A DNA stretch of 32,000 bases. Source: Candidatus Saccharimonadota bacterium (lineage in GTDB: Bacteria; Bacteroidota; Bacteroidia; Cytophagales; Amoebophilaceae). Made by a program: the position numbers and the translations under genes. Shown here piece after piece: positions 274 to 21,193 of the stretch; position 1 is the stretch's first letter; every line of letters starts with the position of its first letter. The stretch covers positions 480,001-512,000 of the forward strand of contig NZ_CP022339.1 in assembly GCF_003351905.1 (NCBI RefSeq), written 5' to 3'. The notes beneath the pieces were generated by a model, which did no database searches, was not told the DNA's origin, and saw only the letters and a program-made list of their open reading frames with translations.

Positions 274-3200
274 CTATTTAGGTGGAGACAAGATTTGCTG
301 ACAAAGCGCTTCCATTTCCGGTATCCAGTTCACCATATTGTTTTGTTTAGCCCAAGGGATATAAAATGTTACCGTTTCCTGCGCAACTTTTAGTTGAGCT
401 GTGTATTTACGTGCAGATAAAGTTCTTAGGTTATGCAACCTATCCGCTAATTTGATTTGCATCACACGGATATCCTTACATTGATGTAATGCCAGATGCC
501 TTTCCGATCGATCTAGTTTCCGTCGATAACCCTGTGTGGTGTAATGCGTCACCATACCCACGATATGAGCTATTTCTGATCCATATAATAGTTCTATTTG
601 ATCTAGGGTAACAGCTGTATCCTCTACGGTGTCGTGCAATAAGGCCGCTAAAAGCGTTGTGGGGTTTTGGGTCACCTCTAAGGTAAGTTTCGTGACGGCC
701 ATCGGATGCGTGTAATAAGGATCACCTGATTGACGAGTAGCTATCCCATGGGCTTGCTTGATAAAAGCAAGCGTTTGCTCTATTTTTTCTTGTGTTAATG
801 TGGTTTCTTTCACCAACAAATGGATTAGTTCCTTTTCTTGCGCTAGGCTTTCAACTGTTTCTGCTACTTCTTGGAATAAGTCTTCCATGTGGTGCCTTTT
901 TAAGCGCATGACTTTTTTACCACATAAAGGTAATACATAAAGGAAAGTCAAGTTTTCTGCTGTCTCTGTTATTGCTGTATATCCGCCATGGGCTTGTATT
1001 ATTTGCCTGCTTTCTACTTGATACAAACTATGTGTCTCTTTAGGTAAATAAGCTGCAATCACTTCATCGGTCATTACATAAGTAGGTAGCAGATTGGGCG
1101 TAGCTGTATCTGTAGAAATACAAAAAGCCAGTGCAGGGAGTAGGGGAGGGCTGAGTGGTTTGATGTTGTCTATAGCTAACTGGTTATCTTTATGGGCATG
1201 GTACGCCAATAAGGTATCTGCTATCGTTAGGGTAATGATATGGTTTGTCGCCTGTTTGCTTTGGCAAATTTCCCAAAAATTTATAGTGAAACATCGCTCA
1301 ATAAGCGCAGATGCGGCTAATATATGGGTCGCTTTAGTTTGTTTTCTTACTAGTAATTGAAGCGGTTTGGATAGGTCACGAACCGTTTCATACGCTTTAA
1401 AGATCGCTGCGTCGATATCTACTTGTTGTAAAGATTGGGGATCCAAAGTCAGCGTGCGTTCTTCTTTCGCTCTCTGTAATAAGATGCGGCTCAAGGCGTA
1501 GAGCTTCTGTTTTTGTGCATCTACACATTCAATATCAGGCTCTAGTGTATCAGCTATTTCTTGTAGTATTTTGCCATTATAGGTAGGATCTAAACGATTC
1601 CAGTTGGCTTGGTTATGCATGGATGTTAAGATAATACTCCTTTCGTAGTTTCTGGTTAGTTCAATAATTTGACATTTTAGTTGGATTTTGCGTCTTGCAT
1701 AGTGATAGGTTAGACAACTGATCAGGGAAACGCATGTGATGGTTACGGCGCTTACCCATTCTAGTGTAGTAACTGCTCTATCTAACCAGATGACCTGAAG
1801 CGGTAAACCAGCTATCATCCACCTATTGATAGCCAGTACTATCGCCAACATCATAAGCACTATAGGTAAGGGCAGTAATAGGCTACTTAAAGCAATATTG
1901 GCGATGATGAGTGCACAGGATATAGGGGCAAAATGACTGAGTGTAGCAAATGTAAAAGCTGAAACAAATAAAACTATATAAAGTAAGATAGGCCATAGTC
2001 CATCTAAAAAAGCATGGCTCCCTTTGTGATAGTTATGCCAAGCAGGATAGAAAGTAATTAATGTGCCTATAGCCATAATGGCTATATACCAATAGATATA
2101 CAGGTACAGATAGGTTTTTTGTATATACAAAAGGGATATAGAACTATAGATAATCAGGTAAATACCAAATGCAATAAAAGTAGAAGTATGCTTAGGGAAG
2201 ATGCTAGACCAATAATATTTTGTAAAAATAGATTGGATATATTTTATTTTTCTTAACCACCAACGCTTAATTTCTTGATTTTGTAGTTGTACGGGACTAT
2301 CATCTAAAATATTTACCCAACCTGTGTGTGCCCTTTTAGGTAGGAGGTAGTGTAAGATGAACAATATAAAAGTATTTGTTATCACAGATTTAAATATGTC
2401 ATGTTGCTCTATAACTTCTCCTTTTATAAAGATGGTATAGGCGGTTAGTGTGGTATTAAGCCCCATAGTGCATAAGACCGTAGCCGCACGAGGTCTAAAC
2501 CCAAAGCAAGCTATAATAAATGGAACGGTAATAGCAGAAGTATAAAATAATGCTGCTTTGTTTAGAAGTTGGATAATGCTTGTCGTATAAAGCGCAGTGA
2601 TCAGACTCAATAGGCCTATGGTTGCAGCGGTAATACGTGCTGTTTTAAGAGATGCTTTACGAAGTGCGCTAAATTTTTTAAATAAGAAAGGAAATAGGTC
2701 ATTGGTACATAAAACAGATGCAATATGTAAGTCAGAGTCAGCAGTGGACATTAATAAAGCAATAATGGATGATACCAGAAACCCTTTGATACCCAGAAAG
2801 TAATCGAGGTCTATAATATAGTCTATGACCTGTTGCCCTGGAGGTAGGATGTGCCCACCTATATGTAGCATAATGGCAACCATACAGGCTAGTATAGAAA
2901 ATAGGATACGTATGGCCGCAGTATTGCAAAAGACCTTGGTGGCATGTTGCACGGAGGTAGACATATACATACGTTGAATAAGTGATGGATTAATGGGAAA
3001 TAACATTAAAGTTGCATAACTGCTTAGGGTCTGGCCAATATTATGCCATGTAAAGACCTTTATGGGATTAAACTTTGGTATTTGTATTAATGCTTTCCAC
3101 GCATCCCATGGATGTGAGGTGTGGTATAGAAGGACAAGAATAATAACTGGCAGACAAATGAAAAACAAAAAAAACTGGTATACATCTGTAAATGTTACCG

Positions 3201-3723
3201 ACTTAGCGCCTCCAAATGAGGCATAAACAATCACAATACAAGATAAAATGATTCCCCATAGCATAGACCCATTTTTTATGGTAGGGAAGACAATAGGTGC
3301 TATACTTAAACCTACTTTAAACTGAATGGCCACGATCGCAATGGCCATAAGTACGCCAAAAAGTGCTGTAATGATGCGAATAGCTTGGCCATACAACATA
3401 CCCATTGATTCAGCTATAGAAAGATGGCCTATAAAGGATTTCATTCTGACAATCATCAGGCGAGCAGTTATATAAAAACCTATAGGAAAAACTAAATCCC
3501 TCATTAATGTGTACAAGCCCTTATGATAGTGGGCATTTAGCCTAGTAGTTAAAAACCCACCTCCATAAACAGTAGCTATTAAAGAAGCCGTTAGCACAAA
3601 CGTAGACATCTGTCTATTCCCTACCGCGTAGTCTTTAAAGGTCGTAACCCCTTTGCTACCATATAGCCCAACAGCCAGTATGGTCGTCAAGCATACCGTT
3701 ATAATGATCCAATCAACATACAT
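274..3723 (-). CDS. Multidomain membrane protein: SSF/SLC5 sodium:solute symporter, ~6-TM block, degenerate histidine-kinase-like core, RelA/SpoT-type HD hydrolase domain (catalytic motifs intact)
   Basis: 1149-aa ORF. The N-terminal ~470 aa carry SSF hallmarks (GGAKSVTFTDVYQ, QRMYMSTSVQHATK, LLMSTADSDLH). Residues ~500-690 form a second hydrophobic block. Residues ~690-935 resemble a DHp+HATPase_c core (TSMHN with His codon at 1615-1617; IIQAHGGYTAITE..FLYVLP), but I cannot recognise N/G1/G2 boxes. Residues ~985-1149 match the RelA/SpoT HD hydrolase pattern: SGDPYYTHP, LLHDTVEDT (nt 616-642, HD codons 631-636) and IKLADRLHNLRT. Confidence 0.8.
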   Translation of the reverse strand: MYVDWIIITVCLTTILAVGLYGSKGVTTFKDYAVGNRQMSTFVLTASLIATVYGGGFLTTRLNAHYHKGLYTLMRDLVFPIGFYITARLMIVRMKSFIGHLSIAESMGMLYGQAIRIITALFGVLMAIAIVAIQFKVGLSIAPIVFPTIKNGSMLWGIILSCIVIVYASFGGAKSVTFTDVYQFFLFFICLPVIILVLLYHTSHPWDAWKALIQIPKFNPIKVFTWHNIGQTLSSYATLMLFPINPSLIQRMYMSTSVQHATKVFCNTAAIRILFSILACMVAIMLHIGGHILPPGQQVIDYIIDLDYFLGIKGFLVSSIIALLMSTADSDLHIASVLCTNDLFPFLFKKFSALRKASLKTARITAATIGLLSLITALYTTSIIQLLNKAALFYTSAITVPFIIACFGFRPRAATVLCTMGLNTTLTAYTIFIKGEVIEQHDIFKSVITNTFILFILHYLLPKRAHTGWVNILDDSPVQLQNQEIKRWWLRKIKYIQSIFTKYYWSSIFPKHTSTFIAFGIYLIIYSSISLLYIQKTYLYLYIYWYIAIMAIGTLITFYPAWHNYHKGSHAFLDGLWPILLYIVLFVSAFTFATLSHFAPISCALIIANIALSSLLLPLPIVLMMLAIVLAINRWMIAGLPLQVIWLDRAVTTLEWVSAVTITCVSLISCLTYHYARRKIQLKCQIIELTRNYERSIILTSMHNQANWNRLDPTYNGKILQEIADTLEPDIECVDAQKQKLYALSRILLQRAKEERTLTLDPQSLQQVDIDAAIFKAYETVRDLSKPLQLLVRKQTKATHILAASALIERCFTINFWEICQSKQATNHIITLTIADTLLAYHAHKDNQLAIDNIKPLSPPLLPALAFCISTDTATPNLLPTYVMTDEVIAAYLPKETHSLYQVESRQIIQAHGGYTAITETAENLTFLYVLPLCGKKVMRLKRHHMEDLFQEVAETVESLAQEKELIHLLVKETTLTQEKIEQTLAFIKQAHGIATRQSGDPYYTHPMAVTKLTLEVTQNPTTLLAALLHDTVEDTAVTLDQIELLYGSEIAHIVGMVTHYTTQGYRRKLDRSERHLALHQCKDIRVMQIKLADRLHNLRTLSARKYTAQLKVAQETVTFYIPWAKQNNMVNWIPEMEALCQQILSPPK

Positions 3724-3935
3724 GGTTTCTACCTAATATTATGTTTGCGCAATAAATTTTATTAGCCTAATTACCTTTTGACTTTGAATAATATAAGTAT
3801 TATAACTTTTTTCTGTAAAATATAAAGTATATTGTAGCTACACATTTAGTAGCGTTTTATTGTAAGCATTACAAGAAATAATGTACAGAACTCAAGGGGC
3901 CATGAATATTTTTTGCCTTTTTAACGTTTGATTTT

Positions 3936-6900
3936 ATGGTATGCTTTCATATGTCTCTTGTAATCATAGGGGCTTTTTTGTTGTTGACTTTGGCAGTAGG
4001 TATCTACTTTAGTAGAAAAAAAACCTCTTTTAGAGAACATGCTGTGGGGAATAAGCAATTCGCTACGGCTACTTTAGTGGCTACGGTGTTGGCTACTGCT
4101 TATAGTGGAGGGGGGTTACTACGTACGGTAGAGTGTGTCTATAATCTGGGTCTGTGGTGGATAGCCATTACCCTTATAACATGCTTAGATGCCTACCTTA
4201 TTAGTAAACTAGCGTTACGTATGGGGCCATTTATGAATCACCTTTCTATGGCAGAAACGATAGGGTCCATTTATGGTAAATATCCAAGGATTATGGTTGC
4301 GTTGGTTAGTGTTTGTGGTGCTATAATTGCAATTACTATGCAAATCACTGCAATGTCCAAGGCTATTACCATGTGTATAGATACCGTTAACCCTAACATA
4401 GCTGCTATGATTTCTACCTTAGTGCTTATTTTTTACTCCACTTTTGGGGGTGTTCGTGCGGTGACCTATACAGATGTATTGCAGTTTATAACCTTTTCCA
4501 TTATTATTCCTTTACTAGCTTGGTTTATGTTTATTAAAACAGGCAAGTCAACTGTAGAAATTGTTTCGTTTCTAGGGGGGTATACTACTAAATTTCAATT
4601 TAGTAGCTTGTTTGGTTGTGGTAAGAAGCTCATAAGCATGGTGTTATTGATTCTCTCTTTTTTGATAGGTCGTATGTACCCATCTATCATACAACGTGTG
4701 TACATGGCTTCTGGTCCAATCCAGGCGCAAAAAGTGTTTGCGCATGTCACGATCTGTAGCGTTGCTATATGGAGTTTTATAATCTTGGTGGGTATATTCG
4801 TTTTTGTAGGCGCACCGGGCTTATCAGGTCCAGAAATTTGGACATATATAGTAAACAATGTGCCGCTTGTCTTTAAAGCTTTGCTTGCGGTTAGTTTGTT
4901 GGCTATGGCGATGTCTACAGCTGATTCTAACTTAAACGCCTCTGCGGTTATGTCTATTCATGATCTCCTAGGTCATATACCGGTTTCTAAAAATATAGCT
5001 CAGGTTAACCAACTGAGGTTAGCTAAATGGGCTACGTTAGTCATAGGCTTATTGGCGATGATACTAGCTTTTTATTGTAATGATTTACTTAAACTGATGT
5101 ATTGGGCCCTTAATTGCTATGTGCCCATAGTGATCGCTCCTTTTGTATTGGCCGTTTTTGGCTTTCGAGGCAGTTCCCGTACCGCTTTAATTGGTATGGC
5201 TGCAGGTGTACTGACTATGCTATCTTGGAACGAGTGGGTAGAACCTATCACATCCATGGATGGCTCCTTTATTGCTATGTTGGTCAATGCCCTGTTCATG
5301 ATGGTTGTCCACTATCTATTCAAACAGCCGGAAGGTTCCGGTTGGGTGCCGCCCCAGCGGGATGATATGGTGCATCAAATGAAGCAAGAAACGGCCCGTA
5401 AGCAAGCAGAGCGCAAAGAAACCATTCAAAATGCTTGGACAAATAAAAAAGATACTTTGGCTAAGCTGCAGCCCAGCCGTGTTACGCTAACCAGTCTAGG
5501 CCTCTATGTAGTGATCATTAATGTGCTGACCTACTTTATAGGCGCTATTACCGATCATAGTGGTTGGCTAATTGCACAACTCTTGGTAGGTGTTTGTTTT
5601 TTAGGGTATAGCACCTTTACAGAAAAGATATCCATTCCGCGTTGGGTAATGGGTTTATTTTGTGTGCTTGGTTTGTCTTTTTGCCTGCCTATCAATGTAC
5701 TTTGGCACTGGTGGCATGGTACCAATCTGCTCTTAACCCTAGGTATATCTTTGGCCCATTTGTCGGTCACCTTGTTGGTGCTTCCGCTTTATCTAAGTGT
5801 AAGTTTTTTAGTAGCTACCCTATGCATAGTGGCCTATCTTAGTCCTACCTACTGTACCAAGACACTGGTACTATCGCCATCATCTATTGTGTTGCTGTTG
5901 TTGCTCTGTTTGGGCGTGGGCTTGCTTATTTTTAGCATTTTTGTTTACCTAAAGGCCAAGAATAATCGTTACTTTGACCAAGTCATTTACCTAAAGGGTA
6001 GAGAAAGGTTTAGCACATTGCATAATTTCAAGGCAGCGCTGTATGACGCAGCTATGGCTCCTGGCTTGCGTGTACCGCAAGGACAGGGCTCTATTTTAGC
6101 GCAAGTAGTAGGTAAAGTGGAGGAATCGATCTCTTTTTTAGATAGTTATATGCCCCTTTATAAGCAAGATTTTCAAAGTATTATCAATAAGCTCTATGAT
6201 TGGGTAGCCTATTTTAATAAAAGAGAAAAGGCCAAAAACCATGCATTGCTACAGCCTATTAAAATTACTTTAGATAAGTTGATTCGTCAGGTAGAGGTTA
6301 CTTTGTCCCAAGAGGTCTCCCACCCGCCTAGGCTATTTGTAGCGCCCTCTAGTGAGACGCCATGCACCCATATTGTATGTGATATCCATCAAGTTGTTTA
6401 CTTATTGGTGCAAAGCATTTTACGGGTTAGTGGTCAGTTAGATGGTTCCAGTCTACCAGTTGTACGCATACACTTCCATCCCACTTCTTTACAATTCAAA
6501 CAGGCGGAGCCTATTGATGAGCGTGCACCTTCGGTGCTGCTTTTTCAGGCGATTGGGTTAGTCATAAGTAATGATCAGGCCACTCCAGCTTCATTGCTCA
6601 AGGTTAAGCCTTTATACGATGATAGGCTGGGTGTGATCGGCCCTGAGGGGAAGCAGGTAGTACCACCATCTATAGATCTTCGGCAAGACACGATAGTCAG
6701 TATGGTAGATGCCCATTATGGCTATTTGGAATACCCTGCTGATGGTAGTCAAGCAGCTATGCTGCTGGTGTTGCCTATTGATGTGGCCCATATTCGTGAT
6801 AAAATGACTACTAAGCTTCCTTTAGACTGCTTAACCTCAGACGCTCCTGTTACGCCTAAGGAGCAAGCCGATTCGATGATGGCCTTAATGCAGTTTCATG

Positions 6901-7523
6901 ATTATATCTGTCAATCTGCTCATTCAAATGATCCTGTAGATATAGGTACAATTTCAGGTTTGCTTTTATTGTTGCGGCAACATTTTGGCTTTAAGCGCCA
7001 TGCTTCGGGCCAATTGTTTTACGTGCGGGCGGTAGGTATTGCCACATTAGTGGTAGATTGGGTTTTTCATTCACCTAAGGTGATTTATGCCGCTTTGCTT
7101 TATGAATTGGTTCGGCATACTTGTTTGCCACTTTCTTATATCAAGCAACATTATAATTTAGGGGTCTATGCCTTTGTATTGAATGTAGTAGGCATAGATA
7201 AACGCCAAAGCTTGGATCATCCTTCCTTGCTGTATGTACAAAATCGGTTGAAAGCAGCGATTAAGGAAGACCATGTACAGCTTTCTGTTCTTTTTATTAA
7301 ACTAGCTGAACGGCTCTATGACTTGCGTCATGCATCAGGCTATGTGCATCTAGCAGAGGTGCAGCATATGGCGCAAGAAACCTTGTCCATAGATGTCCAA
7401 ATAGCCCATACATACTTAGGCTCAGAGGTAGGCACCACGTTGGAACAAGCCGCTAAACAGGCATTAGCGGTTTGTCAAAGTAAGCGGAAACAATCCTATA
7501 CCAAAAAGGATAAAGATAGATAG
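3936..7523 (+). CDS. Paralog of the 274-3723 protein: SSF symporter, ~6-TM block, degenerate kinase-like core, HD-like domain with all catalytic residues replaced
   Basis: 1195-aa ORF (alternative ATG at 3951). SSF motifs: GGVRAVTYTDVLQ, QRVYMASGPIQAQK, AMAMSTADSNLN. A second TM block follows. The kinase-like region contains STLHN (His codon 6021-6023), IVCDIHQVVYLLVQSILRV and VSMVDAHYGYLEY..LLVLP. The C-terminus aligns with the paralog's HD domain, but LLHDTVEDT becomes LLYELVRHT (YE codons 7101-7106), THP becomes VRA, and ADRLHN becomes AERLYD. Confidence 0.8.
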   Translation: MVCFHMSLVIIGAFLLLTLAVGIYFSRKKTSFREHAVGNKQFATATLVATVLATAYSGGGLLRTVECVYNLGLWWIAITLITCLDAYLISKLALRMGPFMNHLSMAETIGSIYGKYPRIMVALVSVCGAIIAITMQITAMSKAITMCIDTVNPNIAAMISTLVLIFYSTFGGVRAVTYTDVLQFITFSIIIPLLAWFMFIKTGKSTVEIVSFLGGYTTKFQFSSLFGCGKKLISMVLLILSFLIGRMYPSIIQRVYMASGPIQAQKVFAHVTICSVAIWSFIILVGIFVFVGAPGLSGPEIWTYIVNNVPLVFKALLAVSLLAMAMSTADSNLNASAVMSIHDLLGHIPVSKNIAQVNQLRLAKWATLVIGLLAMILAFYCNDLLKLMYWALNCYVPIVIAPFVLAVFGFRGSSRTALIGMAAGVLTMLSWNEWVEPITSMDGSFIAMLVNALFMMVVHYLFKQPEGSGWVPPQRDDMVHQMKQETARKQAERKETIQNAWTNKKDTLAKLQPSRVTLTSLGLYVVIINVLTYFIGAITDHSGWLIAQLLVGVCFLGYSTFTEKISIPRWVMGLFCVLGLSFCLPINVLWHWWHGTNLLLTLGISLAHLSVTLLVLPLYLSVSFLVATLCIVAYLSPTYCTKTLVLSPSSIVLLLLLCLGVGLLIFSIFVYLKAKNNRYFDQVIYLKGRERFSTLHNFKAALYDAAMAPGLRVPQGQGSILAQVVGKVEESISFLDSYMPLYKQDFQSIINKLYDWVAYFNKREKAKNHALLQPIKITLDKLIRQVEVTLSQEVSHPPRLFVAPSSETPCTHIVCDIHQVVYLLVQSILRVSGQLDGSSLPVVRIHFHPTSLQFKQAEPIDERAPSVLLFQAIGLVISNDQATPASLLKVKPLYDDRLGVIGPEGKQVVPPSIDLRQDTIVSMVDAHYGYLEYPADGSQAAMLLVLPIDVAHIRDKMTTKLPLDCLTSDAPVTPKEQADSMMALMQFHDYICQSAHSNDPVDIGTISGLLLLLRQHFGFKRHASGQLFYVRAVGIATLVVDWVFHSPKVIYAALLYELVRHTCLPLSYIKQHYNLGVYAFVLNVVGIDKRQSLDHPSLLYVQNRLKAAIKEDHVQLSVLFIKLAERLYDLRHASGYVHLAEVQHMAQETLSIDVQIAHTYLGSEVGTTLEQAAKQALAVCQSKRKQSYTKKDKDR

Positions 7524-7608
7524 TGTCTATGCAGCGGAGTGGTTTTTAAGTGATAATACGTTGCAACTGCTGGAAGAGATTTAGTTTTTGTTGCCTCCAA
7601 GTTAGGTA

Positions 7609-7734
7609 TCAAGAGAGGACCTCTTCTAGGAATTTGTTACCTCTTTCCGATTGCGTAAAATGTGAGTTTTGACGATATACCACGTAATGTCTGATTTGTC
7701 TCTCAGCTAAGTTATTGGTCAATGAAATCTGTCT
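7609..7734 (-). pseudogene. Remnant of a transposase C-terminus (IS66-family-like motif)
   Basis: Minus-strand translation gives RQISLTNNLAERQIRHYVVYRQNSHFTQSERGNKFLEEVLS*. This matches the IS66-type C-terminal pattern TNN.AER.IR....R.N..F..S..G......SLI. It is bounded upstream by an in-frame TAG, and no catalytic part of a transposase is present nearby. Confidence 0.5.
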
Positions 7735-7955
7735 CTAATTAATTTTAATTTATTTTATGGCTTTAAAACTATACCATACGGAAAATAAAATAAAAGTATG
7801 TCCGATTTTTTAGGCCATTATGTTGCGAATCACACAACTAAATATTCCATTCACTTTACAGATACCTTTTTCTTTTCCAAGCTATTTTTTTAACTTGCGT
7901 GCGGCAGATTCAGGTATGCGTTGCTAGCCTATGTTTTTACTTTATTATTTTGACC

Positions 7956-13976: not shown

Positions 13977-14147
13977 AATATCGGCACCAAGGAGTCGGAT
14001 GTACTTTTTTGTTCACCTCTGTGCTGCATGACAGGCTATGGTTCTGTCGTGCTATCTGTCTACTTTTTTGTAACAAGTCCGCGCTATGGGTGGCTCATGT
14101 AAAACTATTTTCAGCATGGTGTTCTTTTGTTATTAAATACAGTTGCA

Positions 14148-14819
14148 ATGCGTTATTTATTTCAGGCTATTTGTTTCTATTTTCAAGGTCTTTTCAAGAA
14201 AATTTATCTATACCTTACCCTTGTTATCCTTGGTACTTTGGGCATAATACCGCTCCAGGCAAAATCAAAAAGTAAAGGCAACTTACTTAGTATAGCGCAT
14301 CACCAAGAGACGGTTCCTAGGCAAACAAAGCGCAAGCCAAAGTACATGGTTAAGCCTGGTAAAAGGAAAAGCAGTCAACAGGATGTTTTTGTAAAGGAGC
14401 AAATGAATGAATTGTTTCGGTCTACTATCCAACTCTTCGTATCAACTGGCTTAATTTTTGGCTTGCATCAGTTATGCAGCAAGCCTTTTGACTTATCTAC
14501 TTTAGTGGCGCCGCTCATAGGCAATCTTGCTGCCGATCCACTTGAAGCTATAGGACGTTCTTCTGCCATGTTGTTTTTTCCATTTTTATCCAAACCTAGA
14601 CTCAATCAAGCAATAGACTTAAAAAGGCAGTATGCAGCAAGGAAGCACACGTTTTCGGCAACTATGCAGAGTTTTATAGAACAGACCTTAAATCGGCATA
14701 TCTGGGCTATACAACGATTTGACTATTGTAACGATAAATATGTAGAAGTAATCCAAGAGGTATTGCAATTTCCTATAGGACCTAAGCAAATTGTGCCTAA
14801 TACAGTGGTTATAAACTAA
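14148..14819 (+). CDS. Fragment 1 of the disrupted AAA+ gene: N-terminal signal-anchor/TM region, no recognisable domain
   Basis: The ORF has a hydrophobic N-terminus (MRYLFQAICFYFQGLFKKIYLYLTLVILGTLGIIPLQA), a basic stretch and one more hydrophobic helix. The ATG at 14148 is preferred over the TTG at 14127. Confidence 0.5.
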   Translation: MRYLFQAICFYFQGLFKKIYLYLTLVILGTLGIIPLQAKSKSKGNLLSIAHHQETVPRQTKRKPKYMVKPGKRKSSQQDVFVKEQMNELFRSTIQLFVSTGLIFGLHQLCSKPFDLSTLVAPLIGNLAADPLEAIGRSSAMLFFPFLSKPRLNQAIDLKRQYAARKHTFSATMQSFIEQTLNRHIWAIQRFDYCNDKYVEVIQEVLQFPIGPKQIVPNTVVIN

Positions 14820-15168: not shown

Positions 15169-15741
15169 ATGGATAACAATGGAAAATTTGTAGCCAGCAA
15201 TGGATCAGACATATATAATCTGTTGCATACCCTTTTAGAAGCACAAGAAGTAGCAGTGCCGTTGTCTCGTTATGACCATGCATGCCCTGATATCTCTCAG
15301 CTAAAAATTGTTTTGATTGCCAATAAAACCTTTACAGAAACCTTGACAGCAGATAAGGCAGCAGCCTTAGAAAGCCGTATAAAAGTCATTCATTTTGATG
15401 AAGGTTTCACCCCTGCAAGGAAGTGCGCGATTGCAACGACTTATGTGGATGAGCTACTGACTAAAAAAGGTATAGATCGATCGCAATTCGATCAAAATGT
15501 AATAGATGCCATTGTAGCAGAAGATAGCCGTATAGGTTTGAAAGGAGTACGTGTTTTGCTTAATGTGATTGATCAATACATAGACCTATTAAAATATCAA
15601 AAGTTGATTCATGAAATTTCAGGTATACAAACGACTACTTTTGATGTAAAACAAGCCTATGCACCTTATCATCTTCAAGCAGGCCCATGCGCTGACTTAA
15701 ATGATACAAAACTGGCTCCTAAAAAAAGCGTGAGCAAATAG
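15169..15741 (+). CDS. Fragment 3: remainder of the AAA+ module (sensor/lid region)
   Basis: LLHTLLEAQE...IVLIANKTFTETL...LESRIKVIHFDEGFT...GLKGVRVLLNVI parallels Lon ALLEVLDPEQN...FIATAN...LLDRMEVI..GYT..AGVRNLER. This reading frame is open from 15154. Confidence 0.6.
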   Translation: MDNNGKFVASNGSDIYNLLHTLLEAQEVAVPLSRYDHACPDISQLKIVLIANKTFTETLTADKAAALESRIKVIHFDEGFTPARKCAIATTYVDELLTKKGIDRSQFDQNVIDAIVAEDSRIGLKGVRVLLNVIDQYIDLLKYQKLIHEISGIQTTTFDVKQAYAPYHLQAGPCADLNDTKLAPKKSVSK

Positions 15742-15757
15742 CGAGTATCTGTTCACG

Positions 15758-16002
15758 ATACTGGTTAATAATGAGTTTTATCCTACTTTTTTCTTGATAA
15801 AAAAGTGGACAAAAAATCAAGCCCTCGGTAAACAGCCGCTGAAAGTGCCATCTTACAGATGGAAAAACAGAAAGCGCCCACTGCGTGGGCTTTAAAGGAA
15901 ACTGTTTTTCCTAATCATCTGTAAAATGCCACTTTCTACACCGCGCCTTTTTAAAGGGGCGTTGTTCTTTGAACGCAAAAAACCACTGCGCTGAACACAT
16001 AC
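15758..16002 (+). repeat. Copy B of the intergenic hairpin repeat (long form, with a 160-nt internal segment absent from copy A)
   Basis: The 5' part atactggttaataatgagttttatcctacttttttcttgataaaaaagtggacaaaaaa and the 3' part aaaaaaccactgcgctgaacacatac match copy A. The extra 160 nt (15817-15976) is bracketed by caaaaaa direct repeats. Confidence 0.7.
15841..15936. repeat. Long imperfect palindrome (~96 nt hairpin), MITE-like or structured-RNA-like
   Basis: gaaagtgccatcttacagatgg (15841-15862) pairs with tcatctgtaaaatgccactttc (15915-15936), 19 of 22 positions. The inner stem ggaaaaacag (15861-15870) pairs perfectly with ctgtttttcc (15902-15911). The apical stem gcccac/gtgggc lies at 15876-15890. 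Confidence 0.6.
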
Positions 16003-16190
16003 AATAGTGATGACCGGTCTCATACAGGCTAGGCCATTGTAGGCATTCTTATCCGTTTGATTCATTTGTTTGCTATGGTTTTAACGCGTAAATTTATTAC
16101 CTATTTTATATTCGTTTACACTACTCTAGTCAAGATTTGGGCCTATTAAGCCATAGGCTGGGCGTGCAGCGGTTTCATTGTATTTTCTAC

Positions 16191-16727
16191 ATGTTGGTTT
16201 CTTTATCGGTTTTTTTTGTCCTATTGAAATACCTCCGAAAAGTTTGCATGCTCTTTGGGTTATTGGGGGTGTTATCTTGTAAAGACTTTAAAAGTTGGGA
16301 AAGTAAATATGGGAATCAGGTAAAAATTGCATTTGCGCCAGCAAAGGACAAACGGGTCCCAGGAGCCTTAGCAGACTTGCAGAGCGAACTGCTTTCGGAA
16401 TTAACTTTTTATAAGTTGTCTCCGCTCCTTACAAAGGATAGTCCACCCTTTTTGCTAAAAGATGGTTTATCTATATCACTTGACCCCAATGCCGATGCAG
16501 TCAGTTTTGAGCTAATAGATGAAAATAGGTGCTACTACTTCCAAGTTACCATTTGCTATGAACGTATGGTCTCCCTGATTTCTACTGAAGCTGGAGGGCT
16601 TCAAGTACAATATACTATTCAGGAGGTGCAATGTAATAAAAAAGATTTCTTCAAGAAAATTACTATAGACGGTCCAGTGCCATTGCAAGCAGAGAAAGAG
16701 AAACCCAATGTTACGTTATATTATTAA
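16191..16727 (+). CDS. Hypothetical protein, probable lipoprotein
   Basis: The ORF has a lipobox-like LGVLSC after a hydrophobic stretch. The start is ambiguous (TTG 16137, ATG 16191, ATG 16248). I recognise no domain. Confidence 0.5.
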   Translation: MLVSLSVFFVLLKYLRKVCMLFGLLGVLSCKDFKSWESKYGNQVKIAFAPAKDKRVPGALADLQSELLSELTFYKLSPLLTKDSPPFLLKDGLSISLDPNADAVSFELIDENRCYYFQVTICYERMVSLISTEAGGLQVQYTIQEVQCNKKDFFKKITIDGPVPLQAEKEKPNVTLYY

Positions 16728-17463
16728 GTCAATAGGTTATATGGTGTTGTCTGTTGTGCTCCCTCAGTGTGTAGTGGCCAATGTCCAACTATCCAACCAT
16801 AGGATTTGGCCTACTACTTGGTACCTTGGCATAGATGTAGCCAAAACTTGTGTGGGTTGGTACCAAAAAACAGGCCCTGCCTATGAAATACATAGTTCTA
16901 TTGATTTTTATCCCATCTTATTAGATGTAGACTATGGCTTGGGCCAAATTCAGCGGGATGGCAGGCCACATAATGGCTCCTTTGCATCTGCGCGTGGTCA
17001 ATATTTTAGGGTAGGCTTAGGGTATAATTTTTTAACACCTACTGCCCATCACAATCAATTTTTTATAGGATTACGTTATGCTAGAAGTTTTTTTGATTTT
17101 CAACTAAAAAGTAATAAGTTACAATGCAACCACCCGTCCAATAAAGCTTGTTCGCCTCAACGATGTATAGCACCTATAGCTTTGCGACATAGCAAAGATG
17201 CTGCAATAGTGCATTGGTGGGAGGTGGTGGCAGGCGGAAAGGTATACCTGATGCGTGCCCTATCTATCGGTTGTACGGTGCGTTATAAGTTCAGCAAAAA
17301 AATAGAAAATAAGTTATGTGCTTTGCCATTTGATATCCCAGGTTTTGGTTTAGCAGAATTTGACCATGCTTTTGGTTATAGTTTGTATGTTTTGTTGCGT
17401 ATTCCACTGCAGCAGAACAAGCAGCCTTCTGGCGGGAATGTTGCGCAAAAAAGCGTAAGTTAA
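16708..17463 (+). CDS. Hypothetical protein, possible outer-membrane beta-barrel
   Basis: 251 aa with an N-terminal signal-like segment and alternating aromatic/hydrophobic strands (YFRVGLGYNF, FFIGLRYARSFFDF, FGYSLYVLLRIPL). It overlaps the upstream ORF by 20 nt, which suggests translational coupling. Confidence 0.45.
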   Translation: MLRYIIKSIGYMVLSVVLPQCVVANVQLSNHRIWPTTWYLGIDVAKTCVGWYQKTGPAYEIHSSIDFYPILLDVDYGLGQIQRDGRPHNGSFASARGQYFRVGLGYNFLTPTAHHNQFFIGLRYARSFFDFQLKSNKLQCNHPSNKACSPQRCIAPIALRHSKDAAIVHWWEVVAGGKVYLMRALSIGCTVRYKFSKKIENKLCALPFDIPGFGLAEFDHAFGYSLYVLLRIPLQQNKQPSGGNVAQKSVS

Positions 17464-17507
17464 GTCTATTTTAATCTTGTAAACCGTATATGACACATTA
17501 TAGTAGC

Positions 17508-18119
17508 ATGAAACGATATGTAAAATACCTTTTAGTATTGTTTCTGGTAATCTTTGCAGATCAAGGATGCAAACTTTGGGTCCATAACCATATGGAATTA
17601 GGGCCAGATTACCATATAAAAATATTAGGAAACCTATTTAAGTTGACCTATGTGCTAAACTATGGCATGGCTTTTGGGTTACAATTTGGTTTTAAGTATG
17701 GAAAGTTGCTGATTACCTGTGTGCGTCTTTTTGCTTCGCTCTATATTATGCTTTATATCGTTCGGTCATTGGCTCAGTCAACCCCTACTGTATGGATTTG
17801 GGGCTGGGTCCTGCTTTTAGGAGGTGCTATTGGCAATACCATAGATAGTATTTTTTATGGTGTTTATTTAAATAATGCACCTGATATAGCGCCTATGCAA
17901 TGGTTCCATGGGCAAGTCATTGATATGCTCCATCTTGATTTTTGGTCTGGTGTACTGCCCCACTGGGTACCTATTTGTGGAGGGCAAGAGATCGGTCTGT
18001 TGCCTATTTTCAATATAGCAGATCTGGCTATTTTTCTCGGACTATTGTTGATGTTTTGTTCTTTTCATGCATTGGTACCATCGAACAAAAAAAGTCAAGT
18101 AACGGATTATACCGTATAA
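17508..18119 (+). CDS. lspA: Lipoprotein signal peptidase (signal peptidase II), copy 1
   Basis: LspA pattern ADQ..K, LNYGMAFG, GGAIGNTIDS and PIFNIAD, so both catalytic Asp contexts are present. The track start is 17490. The ATG at 17508 aligns with the start of copy 2 and gives an exact 624-nt offset. Confidence 0.85.
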   Translation: MKRYVKYLLVLFLVIFADQGCKLWVHNHMELGPDYHIKILGNLFKLTYVLNYGMAFGLQFGFKYGKLLITCVRLFASLYIMLYIVRSLAQSTPTVWIWGWVLLLGGAIGNTIDSIFYGVYLNNAPDIAPMQWFHGQVIDMLHLDFWSGVLPHWVPICGGQEIGLLPIFNIADLAIFLGLLLMFCSFHALVPSNKKSQVTDYTV

Positions 18120-18131
18120 AAGTTTATATAT

Positions 18132-18719
18132 ATGCAACGGTTTATAAAATATTTTTCTATTGTATTGTTTATTGTTTTGGCAGATCAAGCCTCTAAGCTT
18201 TGGGTGTACAACCATATGGAAATGGGGACAGATGGGCACATTAATCTTTTGGGAAATATTTTTAAGCTTACCTATACCTTAAATCCTGGAATGGCATTTA
18301 GCATCCATCTAGGTTTTAAATATGGTAAGTTATTGATTACCACCTTCCGTGTTTTGGCTTCTTTATATATTTTTTGGCACATCATTCAATCCATCAGACG
18401 CCATACACCTGTTGCTTGGATCTGCGGATGGGCTTTGGTGTTAGGAGGTGCTATTGGCAATAGCATAGATAGTATTTTTTATGGTGTCTATCTGAATAAT
18501 GCACCTACTGATGCACCTATGAAATGGTTCTACGGACAGGTCATTGATATGCTACACATTGACCTTTGGTCTGGTGTGATGCCTAGTTGGCTACCTATTT
18601 GGGGCGGGTACTATATATATTGCCTACCTATTTTTAACATAGCTGATGTAGCTGTATCGGCTGGGTTAGCAGTTATTTTATGTCTGTTTCATGGAACTCC
18701 TCATCCCAAACCTTACTGA
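18132..18719 (+). CDS. lspA: Lipoprotein signal peptidase (signal peptidase II), copy 2, tandem paralog
   Basis: Contains ADQASK, LNPGMAFS, GGAIGNSIDS and PIFNIAD. It is collinear with copy 1 over the whole length and starts 12 nt after the copy 1 stop. Confidence 0.85.
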   Translation: MQRFIKYFSIVLFIVLADQASKLWVYNHMEMGTDGHINLLGNIFKLTYTLNPGMAFSIHLGFKYGKLLITTFRVLASLYIFWHIIQSIRRHTPVAWICGWALVLGGAIGNSIDSIFYGVYLNNAPTDAPMKWFYGQVIDMLHIDLWSGVMPSWLPIWGGYYIYCLPIFNIADVAVSAGLAVILCLFHGTPHPKPY

Positions 18720-20701: not shown

Positions 20702-21193
20702 TTAGTCCGTTGGGCTATGATGGGTCGTGGAGATTAGGGAGCGCTCTTTTTTCTCCATTAAAGAAGAGAGGTATTCAGCCAGCTGCTTCAATGCTTTCCC
20801 GAGCTGATTTTTATCCAGGCTATCGGGTAGCTTTCCTATATCCTGTTCCAGGTTGCATAATTGGTTATGCATATCAATTAATAGCGTTTGTGCAATTGGA
20901 TGCCCTATAATCTTTTGACGGGCGATTAGTTGTGGTATTAGACCTACAAGTAATTGATACGGCTTTGTGAGATCTTTAGGATGATCAGCTGCTTTGCTGA
21001 GTATATTTCCATGTTCATCCACTTCCTGATACTTGCCTGTAATATACGCGGATGCCTCTACCAGAGGTCTCATCAGCTCATCGCGCAACAACAGCTCGCT
21101 GCCCTTATTACCTTTTAGACAGGAAGTAAAATAAACAGTTGTCACGCATAACAGCGTCCAATATTGTATGAAATAAAATAATCTTAAGCGCAT
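20702..21193 (-). CDS. Hypothetical protein, probable lipoprotein
   Basis: 163 aa with a signal peptide ending in the lipobox-like YFTSC. I recognise no domain. Confidence 0.5.
   Translation of the reverse strand: MRLRLFYFIQYWTLLCVTTVYFTSCLKGNKGSELLLRDELMRPLVEASAYITGKYQEVDEHGNILSKAADHPKDLTKPYQLLVGLIPQLIARQKIIGHPIAQTLLIDMHNQLCNLEQDIGKLPDSLDKNQLGKALKQLAEYLSSLMEKKERSLISTTHHSPTD

Follow-up and report, generated by a model that had tools for sequence, protein, structure and literature searches.

Transporter-like domains serve as the input of several sensor kinases. SLC5/STAC kinases (CbrA, CrbS, RpuS) and the SSF-6TM-HisKA-HATPase_c kinases that came up in this analysis (e.g. P0096) place an N-terminal SLC5/SSF domain before a cytoplasmic DHp-CA module, and CbrA-type proteins are not known to have the six extra TM helices. 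Among RSH proteins, E. coli RelA keeps an HD fold that has lost its catalytic residues and is a pseudo-hydrolase. Small alarmone hydrolases (SAHs) have no synthetase, TGS or ACT domain and can accept (p)ppApp or NADPH as further substrates. The rickSpo proteins of Rickettsiales are stand-alone, and an RSH census assigned one Rel[HS] and 14 rickSpo proteins to Amoebophilus.

The family considered here has been counted in Amoebophilus and Cardinium among expanded, highly expressed "putative symporters" (sodium/solute), and the literature views its members as importers through which a metabolically dependent symbiont takes up nutrients. A nematode Cardinium strain carries at least 27 copies; in cEper1 all 12 of 12 copies are expressed, two of them among the top ~25 genes, and in Amoebophilus expression of family members is stage-regulated. 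In this regard, we analysed a pair of such genes, A and B, in a window of 32,000 nucleotides (the whole stretch of DNA under analysis) from the insect endosymbiont Cardinium, in which a fusion of transporter, kinase-like core and hydrolase-type domain suggests a direct link between the uptake of nutrients and the starvation signal of the bacterium.

Results

The pair stands head to head, and an ORF check returned exactly the coordinates and spacer of the preliminary description (Table 1). A is an exact match to the Cardinium cSfur protein AXI24187, and B is 100% identical to P0121 (AXI24188) of Cardinium cSfur; both database entries carry no more specific name than "sodium:solute symporter family protein". 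Both reading frames are intact, and the dN/dS of A against its Cardinium sp. TP ortholog is 0.116. The two had been described as collinear, diverged paralogs alike along their whole length, and BLASTP agreed, with 25% identity from end to end (E 8e-68). Their proposed four-part order, with an SSF domain, about six TM helices, a core that is kinase-like but has no kinase motifs and a RelA/SpoT-type HD domain, proved correct in both proteins. Counting only matches above the Pfam gathering cut-offs, we found SSF and HD_4 in A and in B, but neither HisKA nor HATPase_c in either; the kinase fold became visible by profile-profile and fold searches.

Table 1 Features of the A/B locus in window coordinates.
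Feature	Position	Strand	Basis or remark
Gene A	274..3723	-	AXI24187.1, 1149 aa; A-type: SSF + 6TM + pseudo-kinase + RSH-type HD predicted to be catalytically intact
A SLC5/SSF symporter-fold domain, aa 1-465	2329..3723	-	Pfam SSF at 32-408
A basic cytoplasmic linker helices, aa 466-512, and six additional TM helices, aa 513-675	1699..2328	-	Hydropathy, AF2
A pseudo-kinase core: DHp-like helical hairpin, aa 676-760, and CA-like alpha/beta domain, aa 761-940	904..1698	-	hhalign, Foldseek
A RelA/SpoT-type HD (HD_4) hydrolase domain, aa 976-1149	277..798	-	Pfam HD_4 and HD, phmmer, Foldseek
Divergent AT-rich intergenic region	3724..3935	.	212 bp, between A and B
Gene B	3936..7523	+	AXI24188.1, 1195 aa; B-type: architecture as A, with predicted pseudo-hydrolase HD
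B SLC5/SSF domain, aa 1-470	3936..5345	+	Pfam SSF at 37-424, E 7e-14
B six extra TM helices, aa ~515-672, and pseudo-kinase core, aa ~673-975	5478..6860	+	Hydropathy, BLASTP collinearity with A
B degenerate RSH HD, aa ~1010-1160	6963..7415	+	Pfam HD_4 at 1015-1158, E 1e-8

The SSF domain of A matched CHT1 (E 7e-11), SiaT (TM-score 0.81), SGLT1/2, NIS and vSGLT in Foldseek, and E. coli PutP aligned with the family profile at E 2e-34. Residues S340/T341 of the PutP Na2 site correspond to S326/T327 in the family and are 93-98% conserved in both clades; over the ion-site residues S326/T327/D329/S330 conservation is 93-100%, and the MSTADS Na+-site motif is kept in the B-type clade. The AF2 full-length model of A (pLDDT 83.7, pTM 0.74) places a linker helix at 476-508 and the extra TM helices at 513-532, 536-565, 571-595, 600-616, 619-636 and 653-~675, the last of which runs unbroken into the DHp-like part as one continuous helix (653-709). 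The linker and six-TM region is common to the family and the SSF-6TM histidine kinases.

When the middle region of the family alone was compared with the DHp-CA region of histidine kinases by hhalign, the match had a probability of 93% (E 3.3e-7, 150 columns), and Foldseek matched the core of A to the DHp-CA folds of ZraS, RetS, CckA and HK853 (E about 1e-6). In the motif columns of the core, the acceptor His, the N-box Asn and the G1 and G2 boxes are not conserved; in the B-type the H-box His has become L (63%) and the N-box Asn A (77%). As modelled and aligned, the middle region of A and B is a DHp+CA histidine-kinase fold stripped of its catalytic motifs. Since neither the acceptor His nor any of the N/G1/G2 boxes is present, a phosphorelay is not expected. 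Despite the motif loss, dN/dS is 0.04-0.08 in the pseudo-kinase region of A. The DHp-like region is just 14-17% identical between A-type and B-type.

The HD domain of A was recognised by Pfam HD_4 (985-1127, E 1.5e-20), by Pfam HD and by NCBIfam TIGR00691 (spoT_relA, E 8.6e-37, over the N-terminal hydrolase part of the profile only). Its best PDB match by phmmer was A. baumannii SpoT (E 3.5e-28), followed by M. tuberculosis Rel and RelSeq, and Foldseek matched it to SpoT 7qpr (E 7e-9, 33% identity). The C-terminal structure model has a pLDDT of 86 and a pTM of 0.79. The catalytic set is complete (R997, H1006, H1030-D1031, E1034-D1035, D1094, N1098), and about 80 homologs share this signature. 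A thus holds the full residue kit of Mn2+-dependent (p)ppGpp 3'-pyrophosphohydrolases, with the substrate assumed from residue conservation.

In B, by alignment to B. subtilis Rel, every metal-binding or catalytic position is replaced (RelSeq numbering: R44 to H, H53 to R, H77 to Y, D78 to E, E81 to R, D82 to H, D144 to E, N148 to D). The substituted signature, H[FL]R.Y[EDG]R[HYR]TKERYD, is common to about 90 homologs, and some substrate-contacting positions (F/L, K, R, T) persist in the B-type. Judged by these residues, the B domain is a constrained pseudo-hydrolase, because the catalytic ligands have been swapped for other conserved residues and several substrate contacts have been kept. The alarmone-hydrolase-type HD output that had been ascribed to both proteins therefore stands for A, in which all catalytic residues are present, and does not apply to B, in which all of them are substituted. 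The preliminary description had overlooked this contrast in catalytic residues. Within each clade the HD is better conserved than any other domain (mean identity 63% among B-types and 48% among A-types, against 38-54% for SSF), and synthetase, TGS and ACT domains are absent from the C-terminal RSH HD of the family.

A and B belong to one family of inner-membrane proteins of about 1,150 aa. Its members come only from Cytophagales and Amoebophilaceae, namely from Cardinium and Amoebophilus, from related MAGs and from a small number of free-living forms such as Roseivirga. About 170 homologs and dozens of paralogs keep intact ORFs of this length in gene-shedding genomes. In an NJ tree without support values, the HD family forms one clade against SSF-HK outgroups, and the B-type is a monophyletic Cardinium-centred clade of 87 full-length sequences on a long stem. 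Family positions 1-932 align to SSF-HK positions 7-957 (hhalign). By these comparisons the family is a single clade with the genuine SSF-6TM-HisKA-HATPase_c sensor kinases as its sister group, which points to an ancestral sensor kinase of the transporter type in which an HD output took the place of the phosphorelay. In insect Cardinium the B:A ratio is 5:1 in the cSfur genome and 8:1 in the Philonthus strain. As the non-catalytic type outnumbers the A-type, hydrolysis cannot be the main role of most copies.

The divergent arrangement reported for this window is real, but it is not a conserved unit: the A ortholog of Cardinium sp. TP adjoins a B-type gene convergently, and the A ortholog of the Philonthus strain stands alone, as does the single B-type gene examined there (P0112). 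A search of the 212-bp intergenic region for a shared regulatory element found none; the region has no significant repeats, and its single TANNTTTG motif, at 3740-3747, is not enriched over chance.

Among all window ORFs of at least 120 aa, we detected no response regulator and no RelA_SpoT synthetase domain, as the preliminary description had also reported. A synthetase is probably encoded in another part of the genome; for three Cardinium strains a core orthogroup with the name relA has been reported, which is shared with outgroup Bacteroidetes, the name being an automated annotation only. The architecture had been presented as one not known to be characterised. Our literature search found no paper describing or characterising the SSF + 6TM + pseudo-kinase + HD arrangement, and the RSH papers do not mention the fusion, their texts being without the words "transmembrane" or "symporter". 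However, the family is not new to databases, since it is already catalogued as putative symporters, and its HD is most likely the rickSpo class of the RSH census, a match made from copy numbers.

Discussion

We propose that these proteins are transporter-like sensors, derived from SSF histidine kinases, that now control (A) or answer to (B) alarmone turnover, and we give this reading a probability of about 50%. They would work as dimeric "transceptors", in which the SSF domain, on binding or transporting Na+/solute, would alter the TM bundle, and the change would reach the HD by way of the TM19-DHp helix and the pseudo-kinase scaffold, as in membrane histidine kinases. In the A-type, the relayed change would switch alarmone hydrolysis, so that a supply of host-derived solute might lower the (p)ppGpp made by a canonical Rel. 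The B-type, predicted to be unable to hydrolyse, would most likely bind the alarmone as a ligand or comprise non-catalytic regulatory or transport paralogs, and paralog expansion may have provided one sensor per solute. We infer the sensor-to-enzyme direction of signalling by analogy with histidine kinases only, and the gating of hydrolysis by solute occupancy that the preliminary description suggested is plausible.

The wiring could also run in reverse, the proteins being primarily Na+-coupled nutrient importers under the allosteric control of a pseudo-kinase/HD module that would bind (p)ppGpp and, in the A-type, destroy it. The starvation signal would then open or close uptake, in a manner comparable to the control of KimA or OpuC by bound c-di-AMP. 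The near-invariant Na+-site residues of both clades argue for real ion-coupled cycling, a highly conserved, non-catalytic B-type HD fold with some substrate contacts kept fits a ligand-binding domain, and B-types are the majority in insect Cardinium. The family is treated as nutrient importers in the literature, and c-di-AMP-bound KimA, which is among the LeuT-fold matches in Foldseek, is a precedent for nucleotide-regulated transporters. We nevertheless consider reverse wiring fairly unlikely, since the ancestry lies in sensor kinases, which use the SSF domain as their input, and since the full catalytic site of the A-type, needless in a pure ligand sensor, is under purifying selection. Alternatively, solute sensing might be tied to a different nucleotide pool, the HD acting on (p)ppApp, pGpp or, as in Mesh1, NADPH. 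The A domain does match Mesh1 (E 2e-15) and further small alarmone hydrolases, among them the (p)ppApp hydrolase 7smg, and both SAH promiscuity and the NADPH phosphatase activity of Mesh1 have been reported, but its best matches are the long-RSH SpoT/Rel enzymes (E 1e-27 to 1e-28, 33% identity). As A also holds all residues that RelSeq and SpoT use for ppGpp, and a Rel-type synthetase has been reported in the lineage (under the automated relA name), another substrate seems improbable.

An obligate heteromer of active and pseudo-enzyme subunits, co-regulated from the shared divergent promoter region and comparable to the RetS-GacS pseudo-kinase pairing, would take up the heterodimer considered in the preliminary description. 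It would fit the head-to-head placement of A and B 212 bp apart and the two types being neighbours in Cardinium sp. TP as well; DHp-like helices serve for dimerisation, and the fold matches include RetS. Such obligate pairing is distinctly improbable given the convergent order in Cardinium sp. TP, the lone A ortholog and P0112 of the Philonthus strain, an excess of B-types over A-types of 5-8 to 1, the low identity of the DHp-like regions and an intergenic region with no shared regulatory element. The database name, together with the loss of the kinase motifs and, in B, of the hydrolase motifs, might instead suggest ordinary symporters that drag along a functionless relic as their C-terminal half. 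We find this scarcely credible, because the C-terminal domains are no less conserved than the transporter (HD 48-63%), dN/dS is 0.04-0.13 across the pseudo-kinase and HD of A, the long ORFs remain intact across homologs and paralogs in genomes that shed genes, and the B substitutions are themselves conserved.

Set against known systems, the proposed sensor family has close counterparts in the SSF kinases. It shares their N-terminal SLC5/SSF input and cytoplasmic DHp-CA module and can be aligned with the SSF-6TM-HK group (e.g. P0096) through SSF, linker, six extra TM helices and DHp/CA. Unlike these kinases, it has no acceptor His, no N/G1/G2 ATP-binding boxes, no response regulator nearby and no detected STAC or PAS domain, and it adds a C-terminal RSH HD. 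Compared with RSH hydrolases, the HD_4 domain of A is 33% identical to the A. baumannii SpoT HD, with all catalytic residues present. It resembles SAHs in having no synthetase, TGS or ACT domain, and the Amoebophilus expansion has been placed in the rickSpo subgroup (Atkinson et al. 2011); in contrast to SAHs, the HD forms the C-terminal part of a membrane protein with 19 TM helices rather than a soluble protein of ~200 aa.

The B-type likewise keeps the RSH HD fold minus the catalytic residues, as E. coli RelA does, and the pseudo-kinase RetS is a top fold match of the kinase-like, non-kinase core. It differs from both in that its substitutions are a conserved signature of their own in about 90 sequences, unaccompanied by a synthetase domain. 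Like KimA with c-di-AMP, the family joins a LeuT-fold transporter to a cytoplasmic domain that would bind or turn over a nucleotide messenger, but in this family a kinase-derived transducer ties the nucleotide-handling domain covalently to the transporter, and in the A-type that domain is a predicted enzyme and not a receptor alone.

Results

Gene pair and annotation

Genes A (AXI24187.1) and B (AXI24188.1) belong to the Cardinium endosymbiont of the planthopper Sogatella furcifera (cSfur; chromosome 1,103,593 bp), and their sole database annotation is 'Sodium:solute symporter family protein'. These matches place the window in an insect endosymbiont of the Bacteroidota (Amoebophilaceae). Both ORFs were found exactly where the preliminary description had placed them, and an end-to-end BLASTP alignment (25% identity, E = 8e-68) agrees with its view of the products as collinear, diverged paralogs. 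The four-part architecture proposed there, in which a solute symporter (SSF) is followed by extra transmembrane (TM) helices, a histidine-kinase-like core and a RelA/SpoT-type HD domain, is real in A and B according to Pfam and to fold data from models of A, and the SSF-pseudo-kinase-HD arrangement is under selection. The AT-rich spacer between the two genes (212 bp) contains just weak AT-rich inverted repeats and one non-enriched TANNTTTG motif, with no notable element, and shared regulation of the pair is unsupported by this sequence.

Coordinates of the features discussed in the text (window positions for cSfur, locus positions for the comparison loci)
Feature	Location	Coordinates	Strand	Description
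Non-coding stretch	window	1-273
Gene A	window	274-3723	minus	ORF, 1149 aa
Gene B	window	3936-7523	plus	ORF, 1195 aa
ORF	window	14127-14819		no Pfam match
ORF	window	15169-15741		no Pfam match
ORF	window	16137-16727		no Pfam match
DUF6048 gene	window	16708-17463
lspA, first copy	window	17490-18119	plus	signal peptidase II, PF01252
lspA, second copy	window	18132-18719	plus	signal peptidase II, PF01252
ORF	window	20702-21193		no Pfam match
Stand-alone HD_4 gene	L002, Tisiphia endosymbiont OZ183472.1	2012-2668		218 aa, rickSpo-like
P0088	L002, Tisiphia endosymbiont OZ183472.1	8001-11021		HD-less relative
A-type tandem array	L003, C. hertigii CP029619.1	10001-23471		head-to-tail
NUDIX gene	L005, Cardinium sp. 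TP	6952-7518		MutT-like
SSF-only gene	L005, Cardinium sp. TP	15539-16969		476 aa
NUDIX gene	L006, Philonthus Cardinium	7307-7753		MutT-like

Symporter domain

Pfam SSF (PF00474) matches the N-terminal part of both proteins (A 32.6 bits, B 51.9 bits; gathering cut-off 22.8), and the TIGR00813 and PutP models match too, with scores under their curated cut-offs. In the full-length AlphaFold (AF2) model of A, built from a 74-sequence alignment (pLDDT 83.7, pTM 0.74), the SSF core extends to about residue 460. Foldseek against the PDB paired this N-terminal part with CHT1 (E = 7e-11) and SiaT (TM-score 0.81), and also with SGLT1/2, NIS and vSGLT; A is accordingly modelled with the LeuT-type SLC5 fold. 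A single-sequence PDB search with the SSF domain returned nothing at E <= 1e-3, and the assignment came instead from this fold search and from a PutP profile comparison, in which the family profile aligned with E. coli PutP at E = 2e-34. Residues S326/T327 align with PutP S340/T341, the Na2-site hydroxyl residues of TM8'. Their conservation is 93-98% in the A-type and the B-type clade alike (members with canonical and substituted HD catalytic residues, respectively), and the surrounding MSTADS motif reaches 93-100% in both types of paralog. Judged by these residues, the SSF domain looks competent for ion binding.

Linker, extra TM helices and pseudo-kinase core

Beyond the SSF core, the model of A places two cytoplasmic helices in a basic linker and then six more TM helices, the last of which (653-709) is predicted to run unbroken into a long cytoplasmic helix. 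A second model, covering A residues 676-1149 (pLDDT 86, pTM 0.79), consists of a helical hairpin, an alpha/beta sandwich and an all-helical C-terminal domain. The histidine-kinase-like core of the preliminary description stood as a fold but not as a profile match. Neither HisKA (PF00512) nor HATPase_c (PF02518) matched A or B in Pfam, even at E <= 1. The related P0096, an SSF-6TM-HisKA-HATPase_c kinase, matches both domains, and P0088 of Tisiphia matches HATPase_c only weakly. With Foldseek against the PDB, the middle part of A aligned over about 250 columns with the DHp-CA regions of ZraS, RetS, CckA and HK853 (E about 1e-6). The family profile aligns through positions 1-932 with genuine SSF-6TM-HisKA-HATPase_c kinases, and hhalign of the middle region alone against the CA domain of those kinases gave a probability of 93%.

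The family alignment has Y (36%) or H (14%) in the H-box column of A-type and L (63%) in that of B-type sequences, N (49%) or S (37%) in the A-type N-box column and A (77%) in the B-type one, and no DxGxG or GxGxG motif (G1 and G2 boxes). The kinase-like core is a pseudo-kinase, with a DHp and CA fold and no conserved acceptor His, N, G1 or G2 box, and it is under strong purifying selection: dN/dS between A and its Cardinium sp. TP ortholog is 0.04 in the DHp-like part and 0.08 in the CA-like part. As a separate observation, residue 804 of A, at the start of the CA-like N-box helix, is Ala where a conserved Asp occurs in 88% of A-type and 97% of B-type sequences, a strain-specific change.

The HD domain is intact in A and substituted in B

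Both proteins carry HD_4 (PF13328) at the C-terminus above the gathering cut-off of 27.2 (A 73.9 bits, B 35.5 bits), which bears out the RelA/SpoT-type assignment of this domain. On A, TIGR00691 (spoT_relA) aligns over model positions 3-167, which is the N-terminal hydrolase part alone (E = 8.6e-37); the protein falls under the whole-protein cut-off of this model because the synthetase and C-terminal domains are absent. PF04607, TGS and ACT gave no match in A or B, and both proteins end straight after the HD domain. Foldseek with the C-terminal domain of A retrieved SpoT and Rel hydrolase domains (7qpr, E = 7e-9, 33% identity), and the A HD aligns to A. baumannii SpoT, M. tuberculosis Rel and RelSeq at E of about 1e-27 to 1e-28.

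We scored the catalytic and metal-binding positions in RelSeq numbering (R44, H53, H77-D78, E81-D82, D144 and N148). A retains the full set (R997, H1006, H1030-D1031, E1034-D1035, D1094 and N1098), whereas B has H, R, Y-E, R-H, E and D at these positions and retains none. The earlier proposal of an alarmone-hydrolase HD output can therefore apply to A but not to B, whose pseudo-hydrolase status had been left unstated; of the two, only A is predicted to be capable of hydrolysis. When A and B served as queries, the full-length homologs retrieved included about 80 with the canonical signature and about 90 with that of the B-type, H[FL]R.Y[EDG]R[HYR]TKERYD. The HD has the highest mean pairwise identity of any domain within the B-type clade (63%, compared with 54% for the SSF), and it keeps the F/L, K, R and T positions. 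Because the B-type signature is shared, the domain is the most conserved one and the sequences form a single clade, the substitutions in B do not reflect decay, and B is predicted to be a constrained pseudo-hydrolase of single origin.

Phylogeny, distribution and copy number

In a neighbour-joining tree of the membrane part, computed without support values, the HD-bearing family is monophyletic against SSF-kinase outgroups, and the 87 full-length B-type sequences form one clade with a long stem inside the A-type diversity. Besides Cardinium strains, the full architecture is present in Amoebophilus asiaticus (e.g. Aasi_1009), in MAGs of Amoebophilaceae and Cytophagales, and in a MAG of a free-living Roseivirga. 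A search of 1.84 billion 50%-identity representatives gave just 82 proteins with a match to the cytoplasmic half (E <= 1e-30) and about 100 that span the CA-like and HD parts together; next in the ranking are ordinary long RSHs (RelA/SpoT homologs), whose match of about 40% identity is confined to the HD. Copy number differs among Cardinium genomes. The nematode strain devotes about 8% of its genome to at least 27 family members, and its tandem array comprises at least four A-type paralogs.

Family members per Cardinium genome
Genome	A-type	B-type
Nematode strain CP029619 (C. hertigii), 1.19 Mb	at least 13	at least 14
cSfur	1	5
Philonthus strain	1	8

P0088, from a Tisiphia endosymbiont (Rickettsiales), combines the SSF-6TM part with a degenerate HATPase_c and has no HD. 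A stand-alone HD_4 gene lies 5.3 kb away, and P0088 is surrounded by toxin-antitoxin and transposase genes. We considered this arrangement as a 'Rosetta stone' for the fusion and found it unconvincing: the stand-alone HD is 37% identical to that of A, no closer than long RSHs are, and the two genes lie kilobases apart, on opposite strands, among mobile elements. The locus hints at module exchange between intracellular lineages.

Gene neighbourhoods

A conserved divergent A/B unit was rejected. The Cardinium sp. TP ortholog of A (94% identity) and a neighbouring B-type gene are convergent, and in the Philonthus strain the A ortholog (L006) and a B-type gene (L001) each stand alone. A domain scan of the window genes upheld the earlier statement that neither a response regulator nor a synthetase is encoded in the window. 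Functionally linked neighbours were likewise discarded, the remainder of the window being housekeeping genes (a Cys/Met PLP enzyme, MscS, UvrA, two lspA, TsaC, E2, MgtE, SecDF, MFS, Nth and LepA).

Several further observations were made in these regions. The tandem lspA copies are 63% identical, and a kept duplicate is unexpected for a reduced 1.1-Mb genome. No Pfam family matched four ORFs (163-230 aa), the first three of which lie directly upstream of the DUF6048 gene. The SSF-only gene that comes after the B-type gene in Cardinium sp. TP could represent a shortened member of the family or a separate symporter. A MutT-like NUDIX gene stands immediately upstream of the A-type ortholog in both Cardinium sp. 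TP and the Philonthus strain and is absent from the cSfur window. Some NUDIX enzymes degrade (p)ppGpp, and this association may or may not be meaningful.

Earlier records of the family and a possible alarmone synthetase of the lineage

The preliminary description knew of no characterised example of the architecture. Full-text literature searches that paired symporter with ppGpp-hydrolase terms brought up no account of the fusion, but the family is already on record under two labels that have not been connected. The census of RSHs by Atkinson et al. (2011), whose text has zero occurrences of the words 'transmembrane' and 'symporter', assigns 14 rickSpo[H] and one Rel[HS] to A. asiaticus, and an orthogroup expanded in this species (18 copies) was named 'spoT.../sodium glucose cotransporter'. 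From these copy numbers and this name we infer that the HD of the family most likely corresponds to the rickSpo subgroup; Jimmy et al. (2020) list RickSpo among the groups with secondary domain loss. In transcriptome papers the proteins figure as 'putative sodium/solute symporters' of unknown function, with 12 copies counted in cEper1, all expressed and two in the top ~25 genes, and 19 stage-regulated copies in Amoebophilus; the C-terminal domains go unmentioned in the papers on both organisms.

As to the synthetase, the supplementary tables of Brown et al. contain an orthogroup named relA by automated annotation, core to three Cardinium strains and common to outgroup Bacteroidetes. The long-RSH representatives closest to the A HD come from other lineages, with no Cardinium Rel gene among them; the long RSH P0326 lies in a Gram-positive-like dnaG-sigA-rel context with a sortase gene.

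Discussion

The family most probably goes back to a transporter-type sensor kinase that gave up its phosphorelay, retained the DHp/CA core as a scaffold and gained an RSH hydrolase at its end. In the mechanism that we consider most likely, drawn by analogy from membrane kinases, the proteins would be dimers whose continuous TM19-DHp helix carries the state of the SSF (Na+/solute bound or cycling) to the cytoplasmic module. For A-type proteins this relay would gate the hydrolysis of alarmone, and (p)ppGpp would fall when a host-derived solute is available. B-type proteins, predicted to be incapable of hydrolysis, might bind a ligand and act as alarmone-regulated importers, or have a non-catalytic regulatory role; these roles are suggested because the HD fold is conserved and the F/L, K, R and T positions are retained.

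On the broadest reading, Amoebophilaceae endosymbionts would rely on the family as their main system for sensing nutrients. The 6 to about 30 paralogs would each serve a different host metabolite as transporter-receptor and would set or read (p)ppGpp directly at the membrane through a kinase-derived transducer, with A-types as solute-gated hydrolases and B-types as alarmone-gated importers or non-catalytic modulators. We regard this proposal as tentative and give it a probability of roughly one in five. Several alternatives compete with the proposed mechanism. The wiring might be reversed for the whole family, the HD substrate might be a different one, or A and B might work as an obligate heteromer. 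It has also to be considered that the C-terminal part is a vestigial tail, a view contradicted by the conservation and dN/dS data.

Were the nutrient-sensing reading true, it would amount to a signalling logic not described before, standing in for two-component phosphorelays and for starvation sensing at the ribosome in these host-dependent bacteria. The proposed wiring would be the first case known to us in which an alarmone hydrolase is joined covalently to a solute transporter or receptor, and it would tie nutrient availability directly to stringent control without ribosomes or a phosphorelay. It would also cast in a new light a gene family that ranks among the largest and most highly expressed in Cardinium and Amoebophilus and has so far been filed as putative symporters. 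In addition, the family offers a natural series from enzyme to pseudo-enzyme, from kinase to pseudo-kinase scaffold and from hydrolase to a conserved pseudo-hydrolase clade, and an experimentally accessible way into the question of how reproductive manipulators gauge the nutrition of the arthropods they live in.

Among known systems, the long RSHs (Rel, SpoT and RelA) differ in that genuine Rel proteins such as P0387 and P0326 carry synthetase, TGS and ACT domains, which A and B lack. Compared with the SLC5/STAC kinases CbrA and CrbS, in which a STAC domain connects the SLC5 part to the signalling domains, the present family has a 45-aa linker that matches none of the Pfam families, lacks the kinase motifs, and is encoded in a window without a response regulator. 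Experimentally uncharacterised as a combination, it joins two known parts, an SLC5-input sensor and an output of the small-alarmone-hydrolase type.
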